Of a DNA stretch of 64,000 nucleotides, positions 4,801 to 35,046 are shown piece by piece; positions within the stretch are counted from its first letter, which is position 1, and each line of letters begins with the position of its first letter. The notes beneath the pieces were generated by a model. That model saw only the letters and a program-made list of their open reading frames with translations, did no database searches and was not told the origin of the DNA. Position numbers and translations under genes: made by a program. Source of the DNA: Fistulifera solaris (Eukaryota); assembly GCA_030295235.1 (NCBI GenBank), contig AP026164.1, positions 1,612,001 through 1,676,000 of the forward strand. Direction: 5' to 3'.

Positions 4801-7443
4801 GACCGGAAGCACCGAGCCTGGAACGCACAACGCTCTTGGAAAGATCTACATCACTCTCAATCGCGATCCGAAATCGTTCTTGTTGAACAATATGTTCTAC
4901 GATCCAAAAGTCTTGGGTCCGTATTGCGAATCGCTCGATCCTTCTTTGGCCTTTATTGCTTACAAGAAGGGAGCCGGTGAATGCGATGACCAGTTGATCA
5001 AAGTATGTCACGACCACGGACTATACCGTGACCTTGCAAAGTACCTTGTTGAGCGCCAGGACCTTACGCTTTGGGGTAAGGTTCTCAACAAAGAGGAAGG
5101 CAAAGAGGACGAAGAAGACCCTCAACGGCGCCAACTTATCGATCAAGTCGTCGAATGGGCTCTTCCAGAGAGCACAAATGCAGATGAAGTTTCTTGCACT
5201 GTCAAGGCTTTCATGGCCGCTGATTTGCCAGCTGAACTTATCAACCTCCTCGAGCGAATTGTTCTGCAAGGTTCGGACTTTTCGGACAACAAAAACTTAC
5301 AGAATCTTCTCATTCTTACTGCCATCCGTGCCGATACCTCTCGTGTCGGGGGATACATTGATCAGCTTGACAACTTTGATGCCAAGGACATTGCGCTTAT
5401 CTGTGTGTCAGAGCAACACATGCTTTATGAAGAGGGTTTCAATATTTACGTTAAGTTTGCCAAGCCGGAGTTCACGCAAGACAAAGACGAGCAGGTTGAA
5501 ATGCAAGTTCTTGCTATGGGTGTATTGGTGGACTACTTGAAAGACCTCGACCGCGGTAAAACTTACGCCGTCCAATGCGAAGAGAAACCGGTTTGGTCGA
5601 AGCTCGGAAAAGCTCAGCTCGAAGGTAAACATGCCGCTGATGCAATTGAGAGCTTCATTAATGCCCAAGATCCCAGTGAATACGTCATGGTTTGTGCTGA
5701 GGCAAATGAAGCAGAAATCTGGACCGAGCTCATTCCATTCCTCATTATGGCTCGCAAGACTATGCAAGAGAATCTCGTTGACACTGAACTCATTTATTCG
5801 TACGCCCGAACAAACAACCTGACCGAGATGGAAAAGTTTGTCAATGGTCCGAACGTCGCAAATATCCAAACGATTGGCGACCGTTGTTTCTCCGAGAGTC
5901 TCTACCATGCCGCGAAGATCCTCTATATCAACATTAACAACAATTCCAAGTTGGCACTTTGTCATATTCAACTTGAAGAATACAGAGAGGCTGTTGATGC
6001 TGCTAAAAAGGCGAACAATGTTTCGACGTGGAAGGCGGTGTGTTTCGCGTGTTTGCGTGCCGACGAATTCAGATTGTCTGCCACCTGTGGTCTCGAGGTC
6101 ATCAAATATCCCGACCATGTTGACGATGTTGTGACATACTACTCCGATCTTGGCCATTTCACGCACCTTGTTTCTCTTTTCGAGCAAGGAATTGGTCTCG
6201 AGGATGCGCACATTGGAATCTTCACCGAACTGGGTGTCTTGTACACGAAGCATGTTCCTGAGAAAGTCATGGATCATTGCAAGGTCTTCTTCAGCAAGCT
6301 CAACGTTTCGAAGGTGGTTCGTGCTTGCGAGCGGGCACGTCTGTTCAAGCCGACTGTGTATCTATACATGCAAGATAAGCAATATGATAACGCTGTGAAA
6401 ACGATGATGGAGCGTGCCAACGCCTGGGAAAACGATCTCTTCTTGGATTCAGTCACTAAAGTCCGCAATGCAGAACTCATTTACAAAGCTGTTGGCCATT
6501 ATCTCACCTACCACCCTATGCTGTTCACCCGTTTGATGGAAGTTCTTGAGGAAACTGCAGATCACTCTCGAGTTGTCAGCCAATTGCGACGCACAGGTGA
6601 CTGGGCGCTACAATTGGGTCAATCTTACTTGAAGGCTGTACAGAAATACAACTTGACGGCTGTCAACGAAGCGCTGAACGAGGTACGTTTGCTTTTTTGT
6701 TTTGTCTTTGATGAACTCGGCAGGCACAGAACGACTCACAATTACTTGTCTTACAGCTCTACGTCGAAGATGAAGACTACACTAGCTTGAGAAAATCTAT
6801 TGACAGTTTCAACAACTTTAATATGATCGCGCTTGCTTCCAAACTTGCTACCCACGAATTGCTTGAGTTCCGTCGTATCTCCGCATACGTATACCGACGA
6901 AACAAGAAGTACAGTCAGTCGATTGAGTTGTCGAAACACGATCGCATGTACAAGGATTGCATTGACACGGCTGATGAATCTGCCGACGCTGAAATCATTG
7001 AAGGCCTTCTTCGGTTCTTCTGCGAAACATCCGAGAAAGAGTGCTTTTGCGCAGCGCTTTACACTTGCTTCACTCACATTTCACCCGATGTCGCACTTGA
7101 ACTTGCCTGGATCAATGGTTATCAGAACTTCGTCATGCCGTTCGTCATTCAGACTTTTCGAAGAACTCATATGCGCCTTAAGGCTCTGGAGGAACGCACT
7201 GCACCTCCGGCGGAAGCAGGAAATGCGCAAGATACCATCGCTGCTACGTACGGACAGCTCGGCGGATTTGGTTCGGGTGTTTTGATGTTGGAGAACGGCG
7301 GTCCCAGTTTTATGCCTCCGATGGGAGGTGGTGGTCTTGACATGAGTGGATTTGCTCAGGCACAGCCACAAATGATGGGAGGTATGCCGAACGGAGGCAT
7401 GCCGCATATGCAACCCGGTATGATGCCTGGTATGGGCATGTAA
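1893..7443 (+). CDS. CHC: Clathrin heavy chain, 3 exons (1893-1931, 2243-6682, 6757-7443)
   Basis: TMESDRWI, KLPDPRPLIHVCDR, LQNLLILTAIRAD and LLEFRRISAY are hallmark CHC segments. GT-AG introns 1932-2242 and 6683-6756 join the exons in frame. Confidence 0.97.
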
Positions 7444-24404: not shown

Positions 24405-26728
24405 TTAAAAGTGAACCGACTTTCGAGAAAAAAGGGCTTTGATGCCGCGCCTCTTTGGAACTCTCAGATTGTTGGCTTCCTGAGTATTGGGCAATTCAAG
24501 CTTCGGATGGGCGGGCCTTTCCTTGGCAGATTCTTGATACACCGGATGACCGATGGGGCATTCCATCCATCGGTGTTCTTCCTCCGTCAATGAATTGGAA
24601 ATGACCTCAAGTTCATCCAGGATTCGGTCAAACGAAGGACGGCGATCGGGATCTCTCGTCCAACACTTTCCGATGAACGAACTAATAGAATCAGGGACGC
24701 CAGATGGGAATGGTGGACGTGCATCATTCATGGCGACGGCAGCGGCCGCTTCAATTTGCGACATGTTCGCAAACGGTGATTCACGCGACAGAAGCTGCCA
24801 AAACAGTATAGCGGAGGAGTAAACGTCAGCCGTTTGTGAATACGTTTCATGTCGAATCACTTCCGGAGGCATCCATCGATAGGTACCGGTTTCGGCGGTT
24901 GGATCCTGGTCACCTGCGTTGTTCGACTCGGTAGCAACACCAAAATCCGTTATCTTGACCGAAAAATTTCCCGATGAAACCACTCCATCGAGAAGAATAT
25001 TCCCGGGCTTGATGTCTCTATGAATGATACCTTTGTTGTGCAAATAGCTCATACCTTTTGAGATGCTGGATGCCACATGAAAGAAAAAAGTTACGGGGCG
25101 TGCATTTCTGCAGTGCGACGGACAAATCGCCGGCATCGCAGTATTCCAAAACAAGACAAAACGTTAACGGACTCGGATGGTACACCGAGCCTAGCAGACG
25201 AATGATGTTAGGATGATGCAATTTTTGCAGTGCCTGGACTTCTTTCCGCCAGCCATCGAGGCCCATTTCTGTGATGGAAGCGACTTTCACTGCCACATCG
25301 AGGCCACTCCATCTAGCTAGATACGTGGTTCCTGCTGCGCCTTGTCCTATGCGTTTCTTGAATTGAACTTCATAAAGATTGATTTCCCATTCTTTCGATG
25401 CTGGTGCTTTTGAAATTTCCTGTAACAATCCGTCAACTCCTTTCGCGATATTTTCGACCTCAATCTTTACTCCGTTCTGACGCATTGCTTTCGTCGATTT
25501 ATCGTCAGGTACTTCACCCGAGAGGACACTCAGTAATCGCCCCTTCACTTCTTCAGGAGATAGACTTTCTATGACACCCTTCAACTTTGCATGCGAGATT
25601 ACATTGAAAGCGAGGTCAAGCACGTTGTTAATTCTGGACGAGTTCCCAATGCTGTTCTTCACTGCGGTAGAATCGACGTCAGAAAGCACCGTGCAGTGTT
25701 CTATCTCTTCCACCAAAAGCAATTCCATCGAATGTAGCTTATTCACATAGAGTGATGTGAGATTCCACAACTTGTTTTCATTGTATTGTGATCTTAATTG
25801 CCCAAGTTCCAAGCCATTCAGAATCGCGCGTTGCAATTGTTGCATTTGCGGCGGCATTGTGATAACTTCTCGCACCAAATCGTGTAGCGTCCCTTCGGGT
25901 AGTTGATTCAGTTCTTCTTGTTGACTGCGCTGATTCTCCGCGGTCAAGACCAAGTCATTCATCAACATTCGCGACTCGGTATCCTCGGCGGCTAAAATGG
26001 AAGACAGAGTAGCACGTTCCACTCCTGCGGCTTCTTTCAGTCGTACAAATACATCGAGCAAGTTGACTAGCTGCAATATGTTGCTTTCCTGCGTTTCTTC
26101 GACGACGGGTGTTGTTGACGGGACATCATTCCTACGGTGGCCGAACAAGCCTTGCAGCCGAACATCCTCCTGAAACACCAAATCGACGAAGCGATCCTGG
26201 TGGATCGCATCAAACGATAAAGACCGAACACGTGTCGGTCGGCGATTTCCCAAACAGCCATTTCGTTCGGAGTCGTCTGCGTTAGATTCGCCAAATGCTG
26301 ATAGGATGACACGCGCGATCCGAAGCTGTCTTTCTTTGCAACGACTTGAATGACGATTTGGTTTTTTTATGCAATGAACGTTGAAAAGAGGTGAATTTGA
26401 GAATATACTCGTGATGAACGTATTGAATCAGTGTATTGTAACTGAGTAGCAATTTGTGAAATCCACACGTCGATGGCAGAGCCTCCAAAGGCAAGGTGCT
26501 ACGAATTTTCCCCAATACATGCGATGCCGTCGGATCCAGATTGTCTTTCAATCGTAAAATGGCTTGATCGGTGTCTCTCCGAGCGGGTACGAGCACGGAT
26601 AGCTTACGGGTAGGATGAGCCCGAAAGGCACAGGACGCCCCGCGTTCTTTCTGCAAGCAATAGACCAACCGCAAGATTTTCCGTAGAACGACCGAATCAA
26701 TCGCTGAAGTCTCGTTGCTTTCTTTCAT
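24405..26728 (-). CDS. NIT-domain (nitrate/nitrite-sensing) plus TKL/STY-like protein kinase, about 773 aa after correcting two homopolymer indels (26362-26368 and 25084-25089)
   Basis: N-terminal VYCLQKERGAS and RLKEAAGVERA match the two NIT signature helices. The C-terminal kinase has GQGAAG, VAVK, HRDIKPGN, DFG and TAETGTYRWMPPE. Removing one base from each run gives one open frame. Confidence 0.8.
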
Positions 26729-26857
26729 TTTAGAGGAGTAAAGAAGTTTGTGAAAGGATTACCAGAATTTATCGGCAGGAATGATTTGATTTTCGCACCT
26801 TTAACAATATAATTTTAACAAAACAAATAAACGCTTTTTCATTCCGACGGCCGGCAG

Positions 26858-27276
26858 TGTTGTGATTTCACCCCGAACTTGACGTCCGTATGGTATTTAA
26901 CCCTACGATGCTATTCAGTCCAGTTCAAGTCAAATGGAATCGGAAGACAGTAATTTGTTCTCAAACAGTCTATCTTTACTTTTTACGTCAACAGGATTCA
27001 TCCGAATTAATGCGGCGACCAGAGTCGGCATTGCCTTCGGCTGAATCTGTCTTTCGAGCTTTCCCAGCCACCAGATCTGCCCAAGTTACACACGTGGCCG
27101 GTTTAGTCCTTACCTGACTACTAAATGCACTTACTTGCTTACTAGCTTTCTTCTTTGTAGACTCGCTACCTCCACGCTGAAACTCTTTACCAGCTCCGTT
27201 GTCGTTAGAGATAGATGTGACGTCATACTGCGCGGGATTCAGCCCATCCGGGAGTCGCTCGAAATAATCTCCAACA
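26858..27276 (-). repeat. 3' LTR (419 bp)
   Basis: Identical by eye to 32722-33140. Preceded on the element strand by a purine-rich PPT-like GAGGAGCG (27277-27284). Confidence 0.95.
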
Positions 27277-30200
27277 CGCTCCTCGACTTCGAGGGGCGGG
27301 ATCTCGTGCAGCGAATCGACATGATTGTACCCTAAAATGACATCGCGGAACTTACGGAACAAACTCCCATTTAATGGCTTGGTGAAGAAGTCGGCCAGCA
27401 TTACTAAGGTTGGACAGTGACGAATAGACACGTCCAAGTCCCGGGTTCTATCCTTGATCCAAAAATACCTGATATCGATGTGTCTAGACTTCTGACCAGC
27501 CGACAGTCGCCCGTTCTTTTCCATTCTAATTGCACTCTCATTGTCCTGTTCAAAGATCACTTCAGTCATCTTGTGTCCCTGCGCTTCCATGAACAATTTA
27601 ACCCAAACTGTATGCGGTAAATAATCGCTCGCTCCTACCAATTCCGCCTCAGTCGAACTCCTGGTATTTAACTTCTGCTTTGTTGACTTGCAGACTAACC
27701 CACCTCGACCAAACGACGTTATCCCTCCAGTATGGCTCTTCATGTCGGGATGCACAGCAAAAGCAGCGTCGACCCAAGAGCGCATTTTGTTTAAACTGTC
27801 GGCTCCCATCGTATACGTCAATTCCAGCGTCCCTTTCACGTATTCTAGCACCCGCTTGAGTTTATTCTGGTCCTGCTTTGTACTTTTTGTGACTCGGGTG
27901 CACAGGAAAGACACTGGTAATAAAATATCCATCCTCGCTCTCACTGCTATGTAAAGTAGTTTGGCTACCACGCTCCGGAAAACATCGAATTCATCTCCTT
28001 CCAGGGCCGGCGACGCCTCGTCTATGTCAAACAAATTACTTTTCGCAGGAGTTGTTGCTTCCTGCGTGATCCCAAGTTTCGACTCGTCAATGCTCTCTTG
28101 CAAATAGTCCCTCATTTGTACCACCACGGTGTTGTTCGTTTGGAACTCGATGTCCATTCCCAAAAACTTATGTTTCATCCCTCTCGTGACAGACATTTTT
28201 CCAAATCTACCTTCAATGTCCTCAATTACTGTTGTTACAACGTTGGGATCAACATGGGAGACCTTCATATCATCGACATACCAAGCAATTGTGCATTGCT
28301 TTCCATTGATCGTTTTGTTGGCAACGCAGGTGTCATAGGGATTGAGTTCAAAGCCCATGTCCTGGAGCGCGCCGGCAAACATTTCGTACCATAGTAAAGC
28401 ACTACATACACATCCATATAGAGCCTTCCGTAGCTGGACGTACAACACTCTTTTCCCCCCTTCGACAGCAACGAAAGCTTCATACTTCGGATTCATTTTG
28501 CACATGATGTCGACCGACTCTCCGGTGAATTTTAACAAAGTGAAATCCTTCATGTTTGCTTTCAGATACGCACCCACAACATCCGCTATCGCTACGTCCC
28601 GTCCTTCATGAGCGTCAACAATCAACGACAGCAAAGCGAATCCGTCGACACGGTGGGTGACGCCGTTTGCGATTTTTCGTATAAGTTCTTTTGCACGCTG
28701 CCATCGGCTACAGTGCGACCTTTGATGCGGCCATCTCTTTTCTTTGTTACCAGGTTAATGGCTCGTAGCGCTTCTTTCTTTTGCTGTCGGGTCAAAGATT
28801 GTGCCTGCATCGCCATGAACACATCGAGGTCGTCGAGTTGCGCAAACTCTTGCATGAGTGCCTGTATTGCGTCATCTCCGTACAATTTGATGGCAGCTTT
28901 GGCAGTCAGTTGAGCGAACACTCTTCCGAAAATGATCTTCTGCAGTTGTTTCATGTTCATCTTCCCTTGGTCGGTGGCCGTGTTCAAAACCGCCTGCACG
29001 AGAACTGTTTGCAACAGCACCTTTGGCGTTTCGTACGCCTTCGTGCTGTGTGGTTCATCCATCGCTTCGGCAAGTCTTGTGGGTGCCCGAATGTGGTTTC
29101 TGTCTCTGAGTTGGTATCGCGATTCAGTTCCTTGATTGGTATAAAAATCGGCCTCTGGTTCCTTTTCCTCATTTTCGGCCGCTCCTTCGTGTTCATCGAG
29201 TAGTTCGGTTGCTTCAATCAAAACTTCCGGCGCTCCTTGGTCTTCAACGAATGTGTTGGTGTTCTCTTCCGTGTCATCCGACGCTCCTTCTTCTTCATCA
29301 ATTTCGTTGTGTACTGTAAAGTCGGTTTCATTTGCTGCATCGTCGATCAGATTGTCGCCGTGTTGGACGGCTTGATCTTGGTCTTGAAAGTCGGCTTGAT
29401 CTTGGTCTTGAAAGTCGGCTTGATCTTGGTCTTGAAAGTCTTCGTCTGGGTCTTGGGATTCGGTTTGAAATCCGTCGTTGTCTTGGTCTTGCAGATCTGT
29501 GTCTGTGTCTTGAAGATTGTCGTTATGCTGATCTGCGTCTGTGTCTTGAATGTCGTCTTGAATGTCAAACTTCGCTCCTTGATCCGTGTTTGGAAGCAAA
29601 AACGGATCATCGACTTCATCGGGAAATGGAAGATAGACTTGCTCTGGGTCGCCCCACTCAACAATCAACCCAGTCGTCTGAATGAGAGGTTGATTGTCGG
29701 CCTGTGCCAGACGATCCATTTGGGTAAGAACCGAATCGTGAATGTGACAAAGGGTCCATTGGTGACGAACGATGACCTCTCCGGATGCAAGAGAGAGGAA
29801 ATAGTATGCGCCTCCGTGATTTCCTGTAGAACAGAGAGCAATGGCGCCCGTGTGTGCGTGATCGGGGAGTGTTGCTAGGTGTCGGTGCGTCAAAAACCTG
29901 TGCCGTATGAACCGAATTCGATACGTAGCTTGTTGTAGTCCGGAGGCGGTGATCCCGTCATGATGGTTTCGGGTGATAGGTCGTCCGATACTCCATACTT
30001 CCACGGGAAAACGTTGAGCCAGTGCACCACATTCATCATGAGGTGCTGAACAAAACGCAATGGGTAAGCGCGTGTAGGGCAGGCCATGGATAGTCGTGCG
30101 TGCCCGCTCCTTGATGGTCCTATTGGAGCGCTCAATTTCCGGTAATGCGCGTGTTGGGCGACAATATCCAAGCGGACAGGGCCTATGTCGTCCCGCAGGC

Positions 30201-32322
30201 AGGCAAACTTCGTTGTCGCCGTGGATAGCTGTCACTGGGAGTCCACGGCTTTTGTAAATCTCAAAGAGTCGGACGAAACTCCTTGAGCATGGTGGCCTTT
30301 TGTCTGTTTGGGACGGGGGCGATGGTGCGCCATCCAATAGCGCGAGAAATCGTCGTTATAAAAGGTATTTTGTTCACGAAAACGAAATCGACTGCGAGCG
30401 TAACATGGTTGTGGTGCAATAAGATGGATCGCGGCACCGGAATCGCTGTAAGTGTGGGAACATGCTCCGGTGGCGGTCCTGCTGTGGTAGTGCCTTTTAA
30501 ATGGGGAATATCTGGCCCGTGATATGGCAATGGCTCGCCGAGCATCGTCAACCGTCACGGGACAGTTGTGGACGCGGTTTTTGCGCAACCAAGCTTCAAA
30601 TGCCCTCATGCCGGGTCGTCCGACAATCCGATATAACCTGCAGCGCCTCGTCGGCTTGCTGCACTTGGCGTGGTCGTAAATAGTTTTTATTTGCTTCTAC
30701 AGTTGTTACTAGGGTACACGGCGTGTAGGCTTAACAGTGTTGCTATTGTTAGGCTTGAAAACATATAAACCAGACTCCTGTTCGATGAATTTCATTGTCG
30801 AACCATCTTTGCGATGTACCAACAGAGCTAGTTCTTCTTCAGTATCTAGGGTGACACGACACACCTTGTTGACATCTTTCATTGAGAGGATATTTGCAAT
30901 CGACTCGGGGTTAAACCACACCGTTCCTAGGTTGGGAAACTTCGCCAACCATGTATGAGTCCTGATAACCCCCATTCGTCACCGGCCGTAGTACTTCATC
31001 ACTTTTGCGGATGTTGTAAAGATACTGGGGGTTGTTAAACACCGACACGGTCGATTGTGTGTCAAGTAGAATCCATTCATTGCTGATACAATGGTCACAA
31101 TTTCGACTTCGCCTGTGTTAGAACGTAAGCATGTTGCAAAAGAGTTGTTCCGCGGTTGTTTGGAAGGGTGCAGTTGCCTGCATAGTGTCCATACAAATTG
31201 CAGTTGTAGCAAAGTACGTCAGGGAAGACTCTGCCATCATTCCCGGTGACTACACCGTCACTGGTCTGGGCCTGGGTAAACGTAAAATTTCCTACGGTCG
31301 TTGCCTCCGCCTTCGGTCCTTGTTCCCGCGTCAGGTGTGCTGCGCGATGTTGCTGTTGTGCGGGAGGCGTTCTTTGGTACTTCATAAAGGTTCACCAGAG
31401 CAAAGGCCGTAGCCAAATCCGTCGGGTAATGATCATTTCCCTTGACATAGTCGTTCTTTAGTTCTCCGATAAAGCGTGCCGTATCTTGTTTTGTCGAGAC
31501 CTTGAATGAACACCGTTCGCGAGGGTGTATTCCAGGGCACCTTGTGCGCGAGCGTCCTCATCCCCGAGTGACTCTGGGACGTTTGTCCAATTTCCGCTTA
31601 AGTTTCCTCCACAGTGCTTCACAACGTCAGCCCAGGCCTTGAGCCTGTTCATGAAATCTTCCGGCGTTTCGTTCGCAGCTTGCTGACACGCAAAGAAGTT
31701 TTTCTTCGCTTCGATCTCGGAGACCATTGGGTTCTTCTTGTTGTCGTAGTTCATCGTTACTGCCTTGAGCTGTTGTAGCAACCACCACGCAGTCATGGGC
31801 GTCGAAGCGTTCTTCAAAACCTTCGACAGACTTTACTTTCGTTTGCATCGCCGGGCTGGTTTGCTCCCAAATCAAGTTGTGGAAAGCCACCAGGTTTGCT
31901 TGGAGTTCTCTTCTTGTTTTCGCGAATATCTTCAATTCTTCGTTCCGAATGGTAATGTCGCCGGCTGGAGCGCCTTCGGGGAGTGGCGCTGGCCTCTCGA
32001 CCACCGGTTGATTCATCGGGTCGGCAAATAAGCCGACATTTGCATGTACGTATCTTTGTAGTTTTCTTTCGCCACTGCCTGCAGCTTCGTCATGGTCTTA
32101 CTGTATTGTGTTCGGTCGTTGGCCTCTTCGGGCAACTCAAAAACATGGCCACCCATCGCCGTACTCGCTCCTCGGAACTTTGCTTTCTTCGCTTGACCTT
32201 GTCCTTTATGGTTCCGTCCTCCGTTGCCTCTTCCTCCGCGTCCGCCAGCGGCCCCCTCCGCGACCTCGTCCGGGGGTTCGGCTATCTGGTGCGCTTGCGG
32301 CATCAGGCACGGGCGAGGACAT
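26988..32322 (-). CDS. Copia gag-pol polyprotein, fragmented by many frameshifts; its stop lies inside the 3' LTR
   Basis: ORF fragments 32013-32303, 31627-32016, 31458-31817, 31095-31385, 30709-30975, 30232-30609, 28622-30337 and 26988-28634 tile gag to RNase H. The likely start is MSSPVPDAAS at 32322. Confidence 0.8.
29368..29440 (+). repeat. 3 x 24-bp tandem repeat encoding DFQDQDQA in the integrase-RT linker
   Basis: cggcttgatcttggtcttgaaagt occurs three times. Confidence 0.9.
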
Positions 32323-32331
32323 CTTGTTTGC

Positions 32332-32680
32332 CTAGGGTTCGTCTCGTCTCAGATGTTTTCGAAGTCTCCAGGTGTGGGTTCCGTTGTCTGTGATCACGTG
32401 TATTTTTTCGTTGTTGCTTTCGTCTACGTGATCCACCGTGGCTCTTCGCTCCTTTTCTGTTGTCCACGTCTCGCTTGCGTTGGCCGGACGCCCTGATCTT
32501 GTTTGTGATCCGGACTCGATCCGTCGGTCTGAGGCGACGATCTTCCTGACTTTGGTTGCGTTGCTGGGACCCGTCCAATTTGCTCAGAAGCGCGCTTTCC
32601 TCTTGATCAAGCTTCTTTCTGGTGATGTGGATCGTTTTGATTCGCTCAATGATGCCTTGGATCTCGTCAGGAGTTGTCAT
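32332..32680 (-). CDS. Small accessory ORF upstream of gag (coiled coil plus KOW/SH3-like beta domain; one apparent frameshift)
   Basis: MTTPDEIQGIIERIK...DRVRITNKIR continues in another frame as ERRATVDHVD..KIHVITDNGTHTWRLRKHL and ends at TAG 32332. Confidence 0.55.
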
Positions 32681-32721
32681 CCGCTGTCAGGGTCGTAAAA
32701 GTGCTTTTAATTCGGGATGAA

Positions 32722-33140
32722 TGTTGTGATTTCACCCCGAACTTGACGTCCGTATGGTATTTAACCCTACGATGCTATTCAGTCCAGTTCAAGTCAAATG
32801 GAATCGGAAGACAGTAATTTGTTCTCAAACAGTCTATCTTTACTTTTTACGTCAACAGGATTCATCCGAATTAATGCGGCGACCAGAGTCGGCATTGCCT
32901 TCGGCTGAATCTGTCTTTCGAGCTTTCCCAGCCACCAGATCTGCCCAAGTTACACACGTGGCCGGTTTAGTCCTTACCTGACTACTAAATGCACTTACTT
33001 GCTTACTAGCTTTCTTCTTTGTAGACTCGCTACCTCCACGCTGAAACTCTTTACCAGCTCCGTTGTCGTTAGAGATAGATGTGACGTCATACTGCGCGGG
33101 ATTCAGCCCATCCGGGAGTCGCTCGAAATAATCTCCAACA
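32722..33140 (-). repeat. 5' LTR (419 bp)
   Basis: Direct repeat of 26858-27276, upstream of gag on the minus strand. Confidence 0.95.
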
Positions 33141-33199
33141 GGCAGCGCTGATGGAATGAAATCTTCGTAACTACTTTATGGTCGGGGTTTAAATAACAA

Positions 33200-33207
33200 T
33201 GACGTCA
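33200..33207. promoter_or_regulatory. TGACGTCA palindrome (bZIP/CRE-type site) upstream of pyruvate kinase
   Basis: Perfect palindrome about 150 bp upstream of ATG 33355. Function is inferred only. Confidence 0.35.
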
Positions 33208-33354
33208 CCTAGATCCTGATTGGCTTATTTTTTGGATAACGGTATTGAATCTTCGCTTTCATCACACGTTTCGCGGCAACGCGCAAAAACCAATCAATCA
33301 TTTCCATTGAATGCTTTGCATTATTATTTACATTCGATTTCGATACGGAAGACT

Positions 33355-35046
33355 ATGATTTCGTCATTTCTTCGCTCGAAAACAGCAGCAGCGGCACTGT
33401 TCCGCACAAGGATCGCTGGAGTGTCACTATCTCGACAACTCCAGACGACCTCCTTTCATTTACCCAAACCAGCACCCACCACGAATCATGTCAGTACCTT
33501 GCCTTTGGTCAAAATGGTAGCCACCATTGGACCGACATCGGAACAGCAGGAACCATTACAAAAAGTAGTGAAGGAAGGAATGAAGATTATGCGTCTCAAC
33601 TTTTCGCACGCGACACCCGAAGAAGTCGAATTGCGTTGCACGAATTTGGCGTTGGCGCAGGTGAGTTGTTGTCGTTGTTGTCTGCGTACGTGCGGGCGTA
33701 CAAACGTTTGACTCCCCCCTTTTTCTTGACTCATTCTGACATGATAACGCGTTATTGCTTCGTTTTCATTTGATTGACTAGAAAACACTATTCGGTGCGC
33801 CTCTCCAAGACACCCGCGCCATCTTATTGGATACCAAGGGACCGGAACTTCGTACCGGCAAGCTAGCGAATGATGATACCGGTCATGCTACCATTCAGTT
33901 GAATCAGGGAGACACGATTACTCTTCACACGACTCCCTTGGAGGGTGGAAGCACGCCGGATGCCTTGTTTATTGACTACAAGTCCTTGCACAAGGCGCTG
34001 CAGCCCGGAATGACCGTGCTCTTGGATGACGGAGCTATCTCCTTGACCGTCCAATCGATTCATGGCGAAAAGGTCATTTGCACCATTGATAATACAGGAG
34101 ATCTGCGCAGTCGGGCGGGTGTCAATTTGCCCTTTGCGGATACCAGTGATTTACCGGCCATGTCGGAAAAAGACAAGGCCGACATTCGTTACGGAATGCA
34201 GGCTGCCGATATTGACTTTGTGGCGGCATCCTTTGTTCAAACTGCTGAGGGAGTGCAACAAATTCGGGCGCACATTGCCGAATGTGCTCGTGAATTGAAC
34301 TGGACGAAACCCTTACCACTGATTATAAGCAAAATCGAAACGTCCTTGGCGCTAAAAAATTTTGATGCGATTTTGGAGGCGAGTGATGCCATCATGGTCG
34401 CCCGTGGTGATCTCGGTGTGGAGATCCCGCTTTCGCAAGTTACGAACGCGCAAAAGAAATGGTGGCCGCCTGTAACGCCGTCGGAAAACCCGTCATTGTG
34501 GCCACACAAATGTTGGAAAGTATGACCAAGAATCCCCGTCCGACCCGAGCCGAAGTCAGTGATGTCACCAACGCCGTGTATGACGGTTGCGATGCCACCA
34601 TGACCAGTGGAGAGACCGCTAAAGGCAAATACCCAGACACGACAGTCCGTACGATGAACGAAATCATTGTTGCCTCGGAACGATACAGTGCCGCGGCACC
34701 CTTCCCGGTCGCCTCCAATGTGTGTTACGCCGCGGAATCCAGCGAGTACGCTCCCATGGCGCATGCCGTGTGCCGAGCGGCGCTTGAGCGTAATAGCGTG
34801 GCCATTCTTTGTTTGAACGCGGATATGGCCCCGATCATTGCCGCATGTCGACCTCATATTCCCGTTATTTCCTTTTGTACCTCCTCCAAACAAGCCCGTC
34901 AGCAGCAACTGTATCGTGCCGTTTTCCCCGTTGTAGAGAACGGCGTTACGATGGCGAATGCTGTCGAAAAGGCCGCCGCATTGGGATGGGTCCTGGAGAA
35001 TGACAGCTTAATCTTGGTGGATGGTACTACCATGAAATTCGTTTAA
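33355..35046 (+). CDS. PK: Pyruvate kinase with mitochondrial-type presequence (intron 33661-33781; apparent A-run frameshift near 34453)
   Basis: [43 protein letters not shown] and ATQMLESM...PRPTRAE. The N-terminus [19 protein letters not shown] is Arg-rich and acid-free. Confidence 0.95.

Follow-up and report, generated by a model that had tools for sequence, protein, structure and literature searches.

A diatom Ty1/Copia retrotransposon whose minus-strand DNA synthesis is probably started by Tf1-type self-priming

Introduction

To our knowledge, self-priming of reverse transcription has been proven for Tf1 of fission yeast only, and other cases are sequence predictions. The primer-binding site (PBS) of Tf1 pairs with bases 1-11 of the element's RNA, and the RNase H cleavage falls between base 11 and base 12 (excerpts of PMC7175516). 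According to the excerpted text of PMC6317226, self-priming is an established mechanism in Tf1, and there are predictions of it for the Tf1/sushi and Tcn1 groups and for the TAR lineage of plant Copia elements, the last after earlier predictions for Houba and Osr-1. By the criterion given there, a self-primer is a region of the LTR that can pair over 10 bp or more with sequence starting 0-5 bp after the 5' LTR. The fungal Copia element GalEa has a different arrangement, the Conserved Hairpin Site, in which a short palindromic sequence has its partner close by and for which the authors found no complement in the LTR (excerpts of PMC5445492). By a term search, the main text of the paper that defined the diatom CoDi elements is free of any discussion of PBSs or tRNAs (PMC2806351), and our full-text literature searches, which covered publications largely outside subscription journals, returned no report of self-priming in diatom Copia elements.

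Here we describe an element on the minus strand of a 64,000-nt stretch of DNA (the window, meaning the whole stretch that was analysed). Judging from its sequence, it is a young diatom Ty1/Copia LTR retrotransposon whose minus-strand DNA synthesis is most likely started by Tf1-type self-priming; we put the probability of this reading at roughly 0.8. Two stretches are central to the argument: (i) the PBS where the 5' LTR ends, and (ii) a segment inside the LTR that is complementary to it, which we call the LTR arm. The mechanism is already known and has been predicted in plant Copia elements; the diatom Copia lineage would be a new case.

Results

A complete Ty1/Copia element

The element spans 26858-33140 (minus strand, 6283 bp). 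Its 5' LTR (32722..33140, minus, 419 nt, TGTTGG...CACAACA) matches the 3' LTR (26858..27276, minus, 419 nt) with 0 differences. These borders come from flank reading and direct comparison; an automated repeat search gave only 300-nt LTR copies. A 5-bp target-site duplication, CTGCC on the minus strand, flanks the element at 33141..33145 (upstream copy) and 26853..26857 (downstream copy). The 64,000-nt window holds no second copy. LTRs in the relatives described below have a median length of 307 nt (range 230-454).

The internal region (27277..32721, minus) carries a leader, gag with a CCHC knuckle, a protease/integrase region, reverse transcriptase (RT) and RNase H, with its frame broken in the window. 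An open frame at 26988..28634 (minus) encodes the C-terminal part of the RT (Pfam RVT_2, E 4.1e-12) and the RNase H region, and extends 289 nt into the 3' LTR. The LTR start falls within the codons of the conserved ..EERVG. A purine-rich stretch, GAAGTCGAGGAGCG, adjoins the 3' LTR at 27277..27290 (minus) and doubles as coding sequence for ..VEER; its position suggests that it is the polypurine tract. The 3' LTR copy of the LTR arm (26996..27010, minus) lies within the end of the polyprotein frame (..RRINSDESC, then the stop), and the stop codon itself (26988-26990) lies just past this copy, 20 nt after the arm start. Among 32 relatives, the stop is upstream of the LTR arm in 29 (median 33 nt before it) and inside the arm in three. 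The frame thus enters the LTR and stops near the LTR arm, and therefore most of U3 is coding. Between the integrase-like region and the RT, an acidic and poorly conserved stretch (29370-29470, minus) contains a 24-nt unit three times in tandem, encoding ..DFQDQDQA...

The RT is of the Copia type: RVT_2 was found in all 10 of the proteins scanned, each time above the Pfam cut-off. Together with the TG..CA LTRs and the 5-bp target duplication, this gives the element the features of Ty1/Copia. An alignment of 42 polyproteins (A1) shows conserved residues D613, D670 and E706 with the D,D(35)E spacing of integrases, and these precede the RT (1162-1394), which is the Copia order; the integrase call is made by motif alone. 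With Pfam, no integrase family came up at thresholds as loose as E 5, and the sole hit of a profile search against the PDB was the CCHC knuckle of the polyprotein. We rejected membership in the Tf1/sushi group of Ty3/Gypsy elements, as the RT is RVT_2 and the D,D(35)E pattern comes before the RT, not after it.

Among 6641 candidates, a protein search gave 1448 relatives with E values of 1e-10 or lower. The top relative, P0001, is labelled at its source as a hypothetical protein of Fistulifera solaris and is 100% identical to the frame at 26988..28634 over the matched part. The other named matches come from Fragilaria and Nitzschia, so that all named relatives are diatoms. Relatives extend down to approximately 30% polyprotein identity and occur in many aquatic metagenomes. 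Neither single-protein nor alignment searches of viral contigs returned a relative.

The LTR arm pairs with the sequence where the 5' LTR ends

On the minus strand, the 5' LTR ends in ...ATCACAACA at 32722 and is followed by TTCATCCCGAATTAA (32721..32707). The preliminary description of this DNA had read the junction in the same way. No TGG follows the 5' LTR in the window, and TTAATTCGGATGAA, inside the LTR at 32874..32861, is the reverse complement of TTCATCCCGAATTAA save for one extra C on the side after the LTR. ARAGORN found no tRNA genes in the window. The 14-nt complement given in that description, extra C included, is correct as far as it goes, and the pairing is one base longer, because T 32860 pairs with A 32722, the last LTR base. 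The whole duplex (32874..32860 with 32722..32707) thus has 15 pairs and one bulged C. We define the LTR arm, the proposed self-primer, as TTAATTCGGATGAAT (32860..32874, minus); this assignment is based on the pairing and on a homologous arm in 43 related loci. The PBS consists of A 32722 plus TTCATCCCGAATTAA (32707..32722, minus), with one C of the C-run at 32714-32716 unpaired.

The 16-mer made of the last LTR base and the next 15 nt has its reverse complement in the LTR at an edit distance of 1. When the LTR was shuffled, a distance of 1 or less was reached in 0 of 3000 shuffles and a distance of 2 in two. The minimum-energy RNA fold of 32880..32700 joins the two stretches (-46 kcal/mol, z -2.69), and 3 of 200 shuffles fold as well.

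A second primer-like stretch, AGTTCGGGGTGAA, lies at the end of U5 (32731..32743, minus) and could form a local hairpin with the PBS, with 13 pairs (counting G-U) and a 9-nt loop in the window. Such a hairpin has 10-12 pairs in L002, L012 and L059 and is not conserved in the other 36 elements. We therefore rejected a conserved hairpin between U5 and the primer site: the mean longest stem is 6.2 pairs versus 5.9 in shuffles, and stems of at least 10 pairs occur in 4 of 40 elements versus 31 of 2000 shuffles.

The pairing is conserved with a drifting sequence in related loci

We scanned metagenome contigs with A1 and obtained 607 matched stretches, 537 of which encode relatives; the best 80 were kept, giving 78 loci. 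Many of these contigs present the element in circularly permuted form, so that an intact LTR is located between the pol end and gag. Sixteen loci have pol end, LTR and gag in one contiguous stretch; in every one of them, the longest inverted repeat is a perfect pairing of 13-16 nt in the same place, linking an internal LTR stretch to sequence that starts at the LTR end (..CAAC|A).

We then scanned whole loci for perfect inverted repeats of at least 11 nt with arms 60-260 nt apart. Repeats were found in 49 of the 78 best-matching loci, and 43 of them are at the LTR end. The remaining six (L021, L039, L050, L054, L067 and L070) lie elsewhere in their contigs and were set aside; their arms are 11 nt long in five cases and 20 nt in L067. 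The 43 loci have perfect pairings of 11-16 nt with 39 different arm sequences. Among these 39, arms are 15 nt long in 28, 14 nt in five, 16 nt in four, and 13 and 11 nt in one each. The arms lie 88-205 nt apart (median 118), and the 28 arms of 15 nt differ from one another at 6.7 positions on average. None of the 39 sites begins with TGG.

Judged from the boundaries of LTR copies, the last LTR base is where the right arm begins in L020, L052 and L072, and in L011 it begins one base later; two of the 43 loci (L017 and L048) are without the usual CA right at the arm. All pairs are Watson-Crick in the 43 conforming loci, and since the search was for perfect Watson-Crick repeats, this perfection and the lack of G-U pairs are partly methodological. 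The only departures from perfect pairing among the evaluable relatives and the window are L038, where the pairing is present with two mismatches, and the window itself with its one-base bulge. In three further loci (L004, L019 and L029), CAACA is followed by a site of similar kind, in contigs that start too late to include an LTR arm. In L039, L047, L050 and L073, no pairing with two or fewer mismatches was found in their limited upstream sequence, which may lack an LTR end. The other loci are without a junction of 5' LTR and leader, as judged by protein anchors and not each by eye.

Changes in one arm are accompanied by changes in the other. In close relatives (L045/L046, L006/L074, L013/L033 and L005/L018/L031), single-base differences are mirrored on both arms. 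We quantified this in A2, a MAFFT alignment of the window and 38 loci; L012 was excluded, as its region spans contig ends. In A2, 91% of the cells of the 15-pair helix are paired versus 60% in shuffles, and 164 cells are changed on both sides versus 47.5 in shuffles; 0 of 500 shuffles reached either value. The covariation score is 0.676 versus 0.160 in shuffles, and when the helix was slid along the alignment as a control, no position exceeded 54% paired or a score of 0.213. The unpaired cells stem mostly from rows that MAFFT placed out of register and from the window bulge. RNAalifold predicted this helix alone on A2, with 12 pairs that all show compensatory changes. A second helix beside the primer duplex, seen in the window fold, was not recovered by RNAalifold; the middle of A2 is poorly aligned, which makes this result uninformative. 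Of 1080 dinucleotide shuffles made from 27 upstream regions, seven had a longest perfect inverted repeat of 13 nt and none had one of 14 nt. The preliminary description had proposed covariation between the PBS and the LTR segment as a check on its reading, and the outcome is strongly in its favor, with compensatory changes across 39 distinct arm pairs. What we observed directly is the complementarity, the way it sits flush with the LTR end, and the fact that it is conserved with covariation.

A predicted transcription start directly before the LTR arm

The triplet directly before the LTR arm in the window is GCA (32875..32877, minus). In the 39 distinct relatives, this triplet is TCA in 29, TTA in three, ACA in two, GCA in one and other in four. 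CC follows the LTR arm in 23 of the 39 and in the window. The initiator consensus is YYA(+1), and the TCA or GCA before the arm resembles this motif. On account of this initiator-like triplet, we predict a transcription start at approximately A 32875, which falls within the range of 32874-32877 proposed earlier. The base at the predicted +1 position (the A of TCA) is unpaired in most elements.

One relative, L011, provides a hint of a real boundary at this point. The first base of the LTR arm is also the first base of its 5' LTR-repeat copy (118-228), and the 117 nt before the repeat are unrelated to the U3 of its complete 3' LTR (locus regions 1-240 and 6135-6515). L011 may be a copy without U3, or a chimeric contig.

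The sequence upstream of the arm has other recurrent features. Many relatives have a short TGAG...CTCA hairpin 10-30 nt before the arm, with its 3' arm ending in the pre-arm TCA. ATGA and ATGAG words recur over the same 10-30 nt and may be polyprotein stop codons. We also looked for a TATA-like box in the 60 nt before the arm; AAATAG-like words recur there and overlap the polyprotein stop region, and we make no claim for them.

Read-derived contigs and the surroundings of the element

We compared 27277-33400 with read-derived contigs of four runs from one study; such contigs show no molecule ends. A contig of run X1 that covers 29411-32751 differs from the window by 31 one-base gaps, at which the window has the extra base, and by eight substitutions. 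Nine of the 12 one-base gaps listed for X1 fall in runs of at least two identical bases. These one-base length differences are the likely reason why the polyprotein is split over several frames despite identical LTRs. An error in the length of the C-run at 32714-32716 is a reasonable guess for the bulged C, because every conforming relative is perfect.

Over 24405-27159, contigs of X2 (1753 nt) and X3 (2731 nt) join the 3' LTR to a downstream minus-strand gene, whose open frames at 26282-26728, 25018-25968 and 24405-25136 include the protein-kinase motif HRDIKPGNILL. Their LTR parts reach positions equivalent to 32974 and 33023, which are 100-150 nt upstream of the predicted start, and the two runs give no cover over most of the element interior. 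If X2 and X3 are RNA, these contigs may represent chimeric or read-through transcripts of LTR and gene, some of them covering the proposed U3. We dropped them as proof of a start upstream of 33023, as each contig comes with only one mean depth.

The X1 contigs also bear on copy number. Depth is approximately 20 inside the element, as opposed to approximately 50 in the flank. From 33150 onwards one X1 contig matches the flank, and ahead of that point it has sequence resembling, without being identical to, that below 26857. A second, diverged copy of the locus seems to be without the insertion (compared over 33141-33400 and 26700-26857). An X1 contig exits the outer LTR end (33141) into neither the local flank nor the element interior, and this loose end suggests at least one further copy or solo LTR elsewhere in the genome.

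Discussion

A proposed self-priming cycle for the element

Self-priming would account for the pairing as follows. The transcription start, the cleavage and the copying-back are steps that we infer. Transcription would begin at the initiator-like site directly before the LTR arm (approximately 32875), and the first approximately 15 nt of the RNA would fold back onto the site approximately 135 nt downstream, starting at the LTR boundary. The element's own RNase H would then cut at the 3' end of the duplex, which is the 3' end of the LTR arm, and the freed 3' OH would be extended through U5 and R. Plus-strand strong-stop DNA would copy the short primer back, such that each round of replication renews either arm from the other. 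This proposed copying would explain why the arms in the relatives match perfectly despite a drifting sequence. The preliminary description had suggested tRNA-independent self-priming in a Copia lineage. The covariation supports that suggestion, as does the site itself, which differs in nearly every relative; as a type of priming in Copia elements it has precedent, having already been predicted for the plant TAR lineage (excerpts of PMC6317226).

The alternative that survives best is that the pairing is a conserved RNA structure with a non-priming role, and that the real primer is something else. Such a structure could mask the primer site, act in dimerisation or packaging, or, by way of the 3' LTR copy of the arm, join the RNA ends and aid the first strand transfer. 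End-to-end pairing is possible in principle, with the LTR arm also present near the RNA 3' end (26996-27010). Covariation demonstrates pairing and not priming, and in the window the local hairpin between U5 and the primer site competes with the duplex. Against these points, no other primer site is visible, and the paired stretch has its start no more than one base from the LTR boundary, at the very point that the 3' end of a primer must occupy. The outer edge of the pairing coincides with the initiator-like motif, for which an element of general structural function would have no need. If selection acted on structure alone, some G-U pairs or mismatches would also be expected to remain, and the 43 loci are perfect, in part because perfect repeats were searched for. 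We consider a purely structural role unlikely.

It is far less probable that a host tRNA fragment or another small host RNA is the primer and that the LTR copy is incidental. The site in the window can be read as ending in a U-GAA stretch that, from tRNA geometry as we assume it, looks like part of an anticodon loop. Priming by half-tRNAs is moreover known in Copia lineages (excerpts of PMC6317226). What speaks against it is that the site has 39 different sequences, each matched perfectly by its own LTR, and because of this diversity a conserved host RNA cannot match all of them.

A chance match or assembly artefact, for which one could cite the many one-base length differences between the window and the read-derived contigs within the element, can be dismissed, as 0 of 3000 shuffles came as close and 43 independent contigs of other origin show the same feature.

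Significance

We lean slightly towards a broader reading in which self-priming belongs to a whole lineage. A deep and widespread lineage of diatom Copia elements would have given up tRNA priming, with the first approximately 15 nt of each element's own RNA as the primer and with primer and site rewritten in every cycle; self-priming would then have arisen, or been kept, independently of Tf1/sushi and TAR. If this is true, each family carries a drifting and always perfectly matched 15-nt "barcode", and self-priming is a recurrent, perhaps ancestral, solution in LTR elements.

Self-priming by the element described here would matter in several ways. It would add a whole diatom Copia lineage to the predicted cases, with unusually clean comparative support in the form of 39 different, perfectly matched arm pairs, and it gives a precise and testable position for transcription start and cut. 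It would account for the failure of the usual PBS searches by tRNA match on these elements, which are abundant in the sea, and it offers a simple rule for placing LTR ends and the U3/R boundary in the annotation of diatom genomes. It would also provide a data point on which came first in LTR elements, tRNA priming or self-priming. We regard the advance as moderate, given a known mechanism with an existing prediction in plant Copia elements.

Comparison with known systems

The element resembles Tf1 and Tf2 of Schizosaccharomyces pombe and the sushi group in that the site after the LTR is complementary to the proposed start of its own RNA and no tRNA site is present. It differs from Tf1 in three respects: (i) Tf1 belongs to Ty3/Gypsy, whereas the superfamily here is Copia, with an RVT_2 RT and D,D(35)E before the RT; (ii) the duplex is 13-16 nt long, mostly 15, and usually includes the last LTR base, compared with 11 in Tf1; and (iii) base 1 pairs in Tf1, while the predicted +1 base here is mostly unpaired, with both start and cleavage being predictions in our case.

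Like the plant TAR elements (Houba and Osr-1), the window element and its diatom relatives are Copia elements predicted to self-prime, and they fall within the published definition of a self-primer quoted in the Introduction (excerpts of PMC6317226). The host group is different, namely diatoms, together with the metagenome relatives. With fungal GalEa they share a Copia affiliation, the lack of a tRNA-type PBS, and a conserved pairing at the LTR end (excerpts of PMC5445492). Unlike in GalEa, the partner lies approximately 118 nt upstream inside the LTR, and the local hairpin is not conserved.

The half-tRNA-primed Copia elements (Drosophila copia, Osser, Bryco and Bianca) likewise have a PBS that does not match a tRNA 3' end (excerpts of PMC6317226). 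We rejected assignment to this class, which is marked by a conserved PBS, on finding 39 different site sequences. In the half-tRNA-primed elements, as far as the excerpted text describes them, the conserved PBS matches an internal stretch of a tRNA, whereas in the diatom lineage the site is free to vary and has its match in the LTR of the same element.
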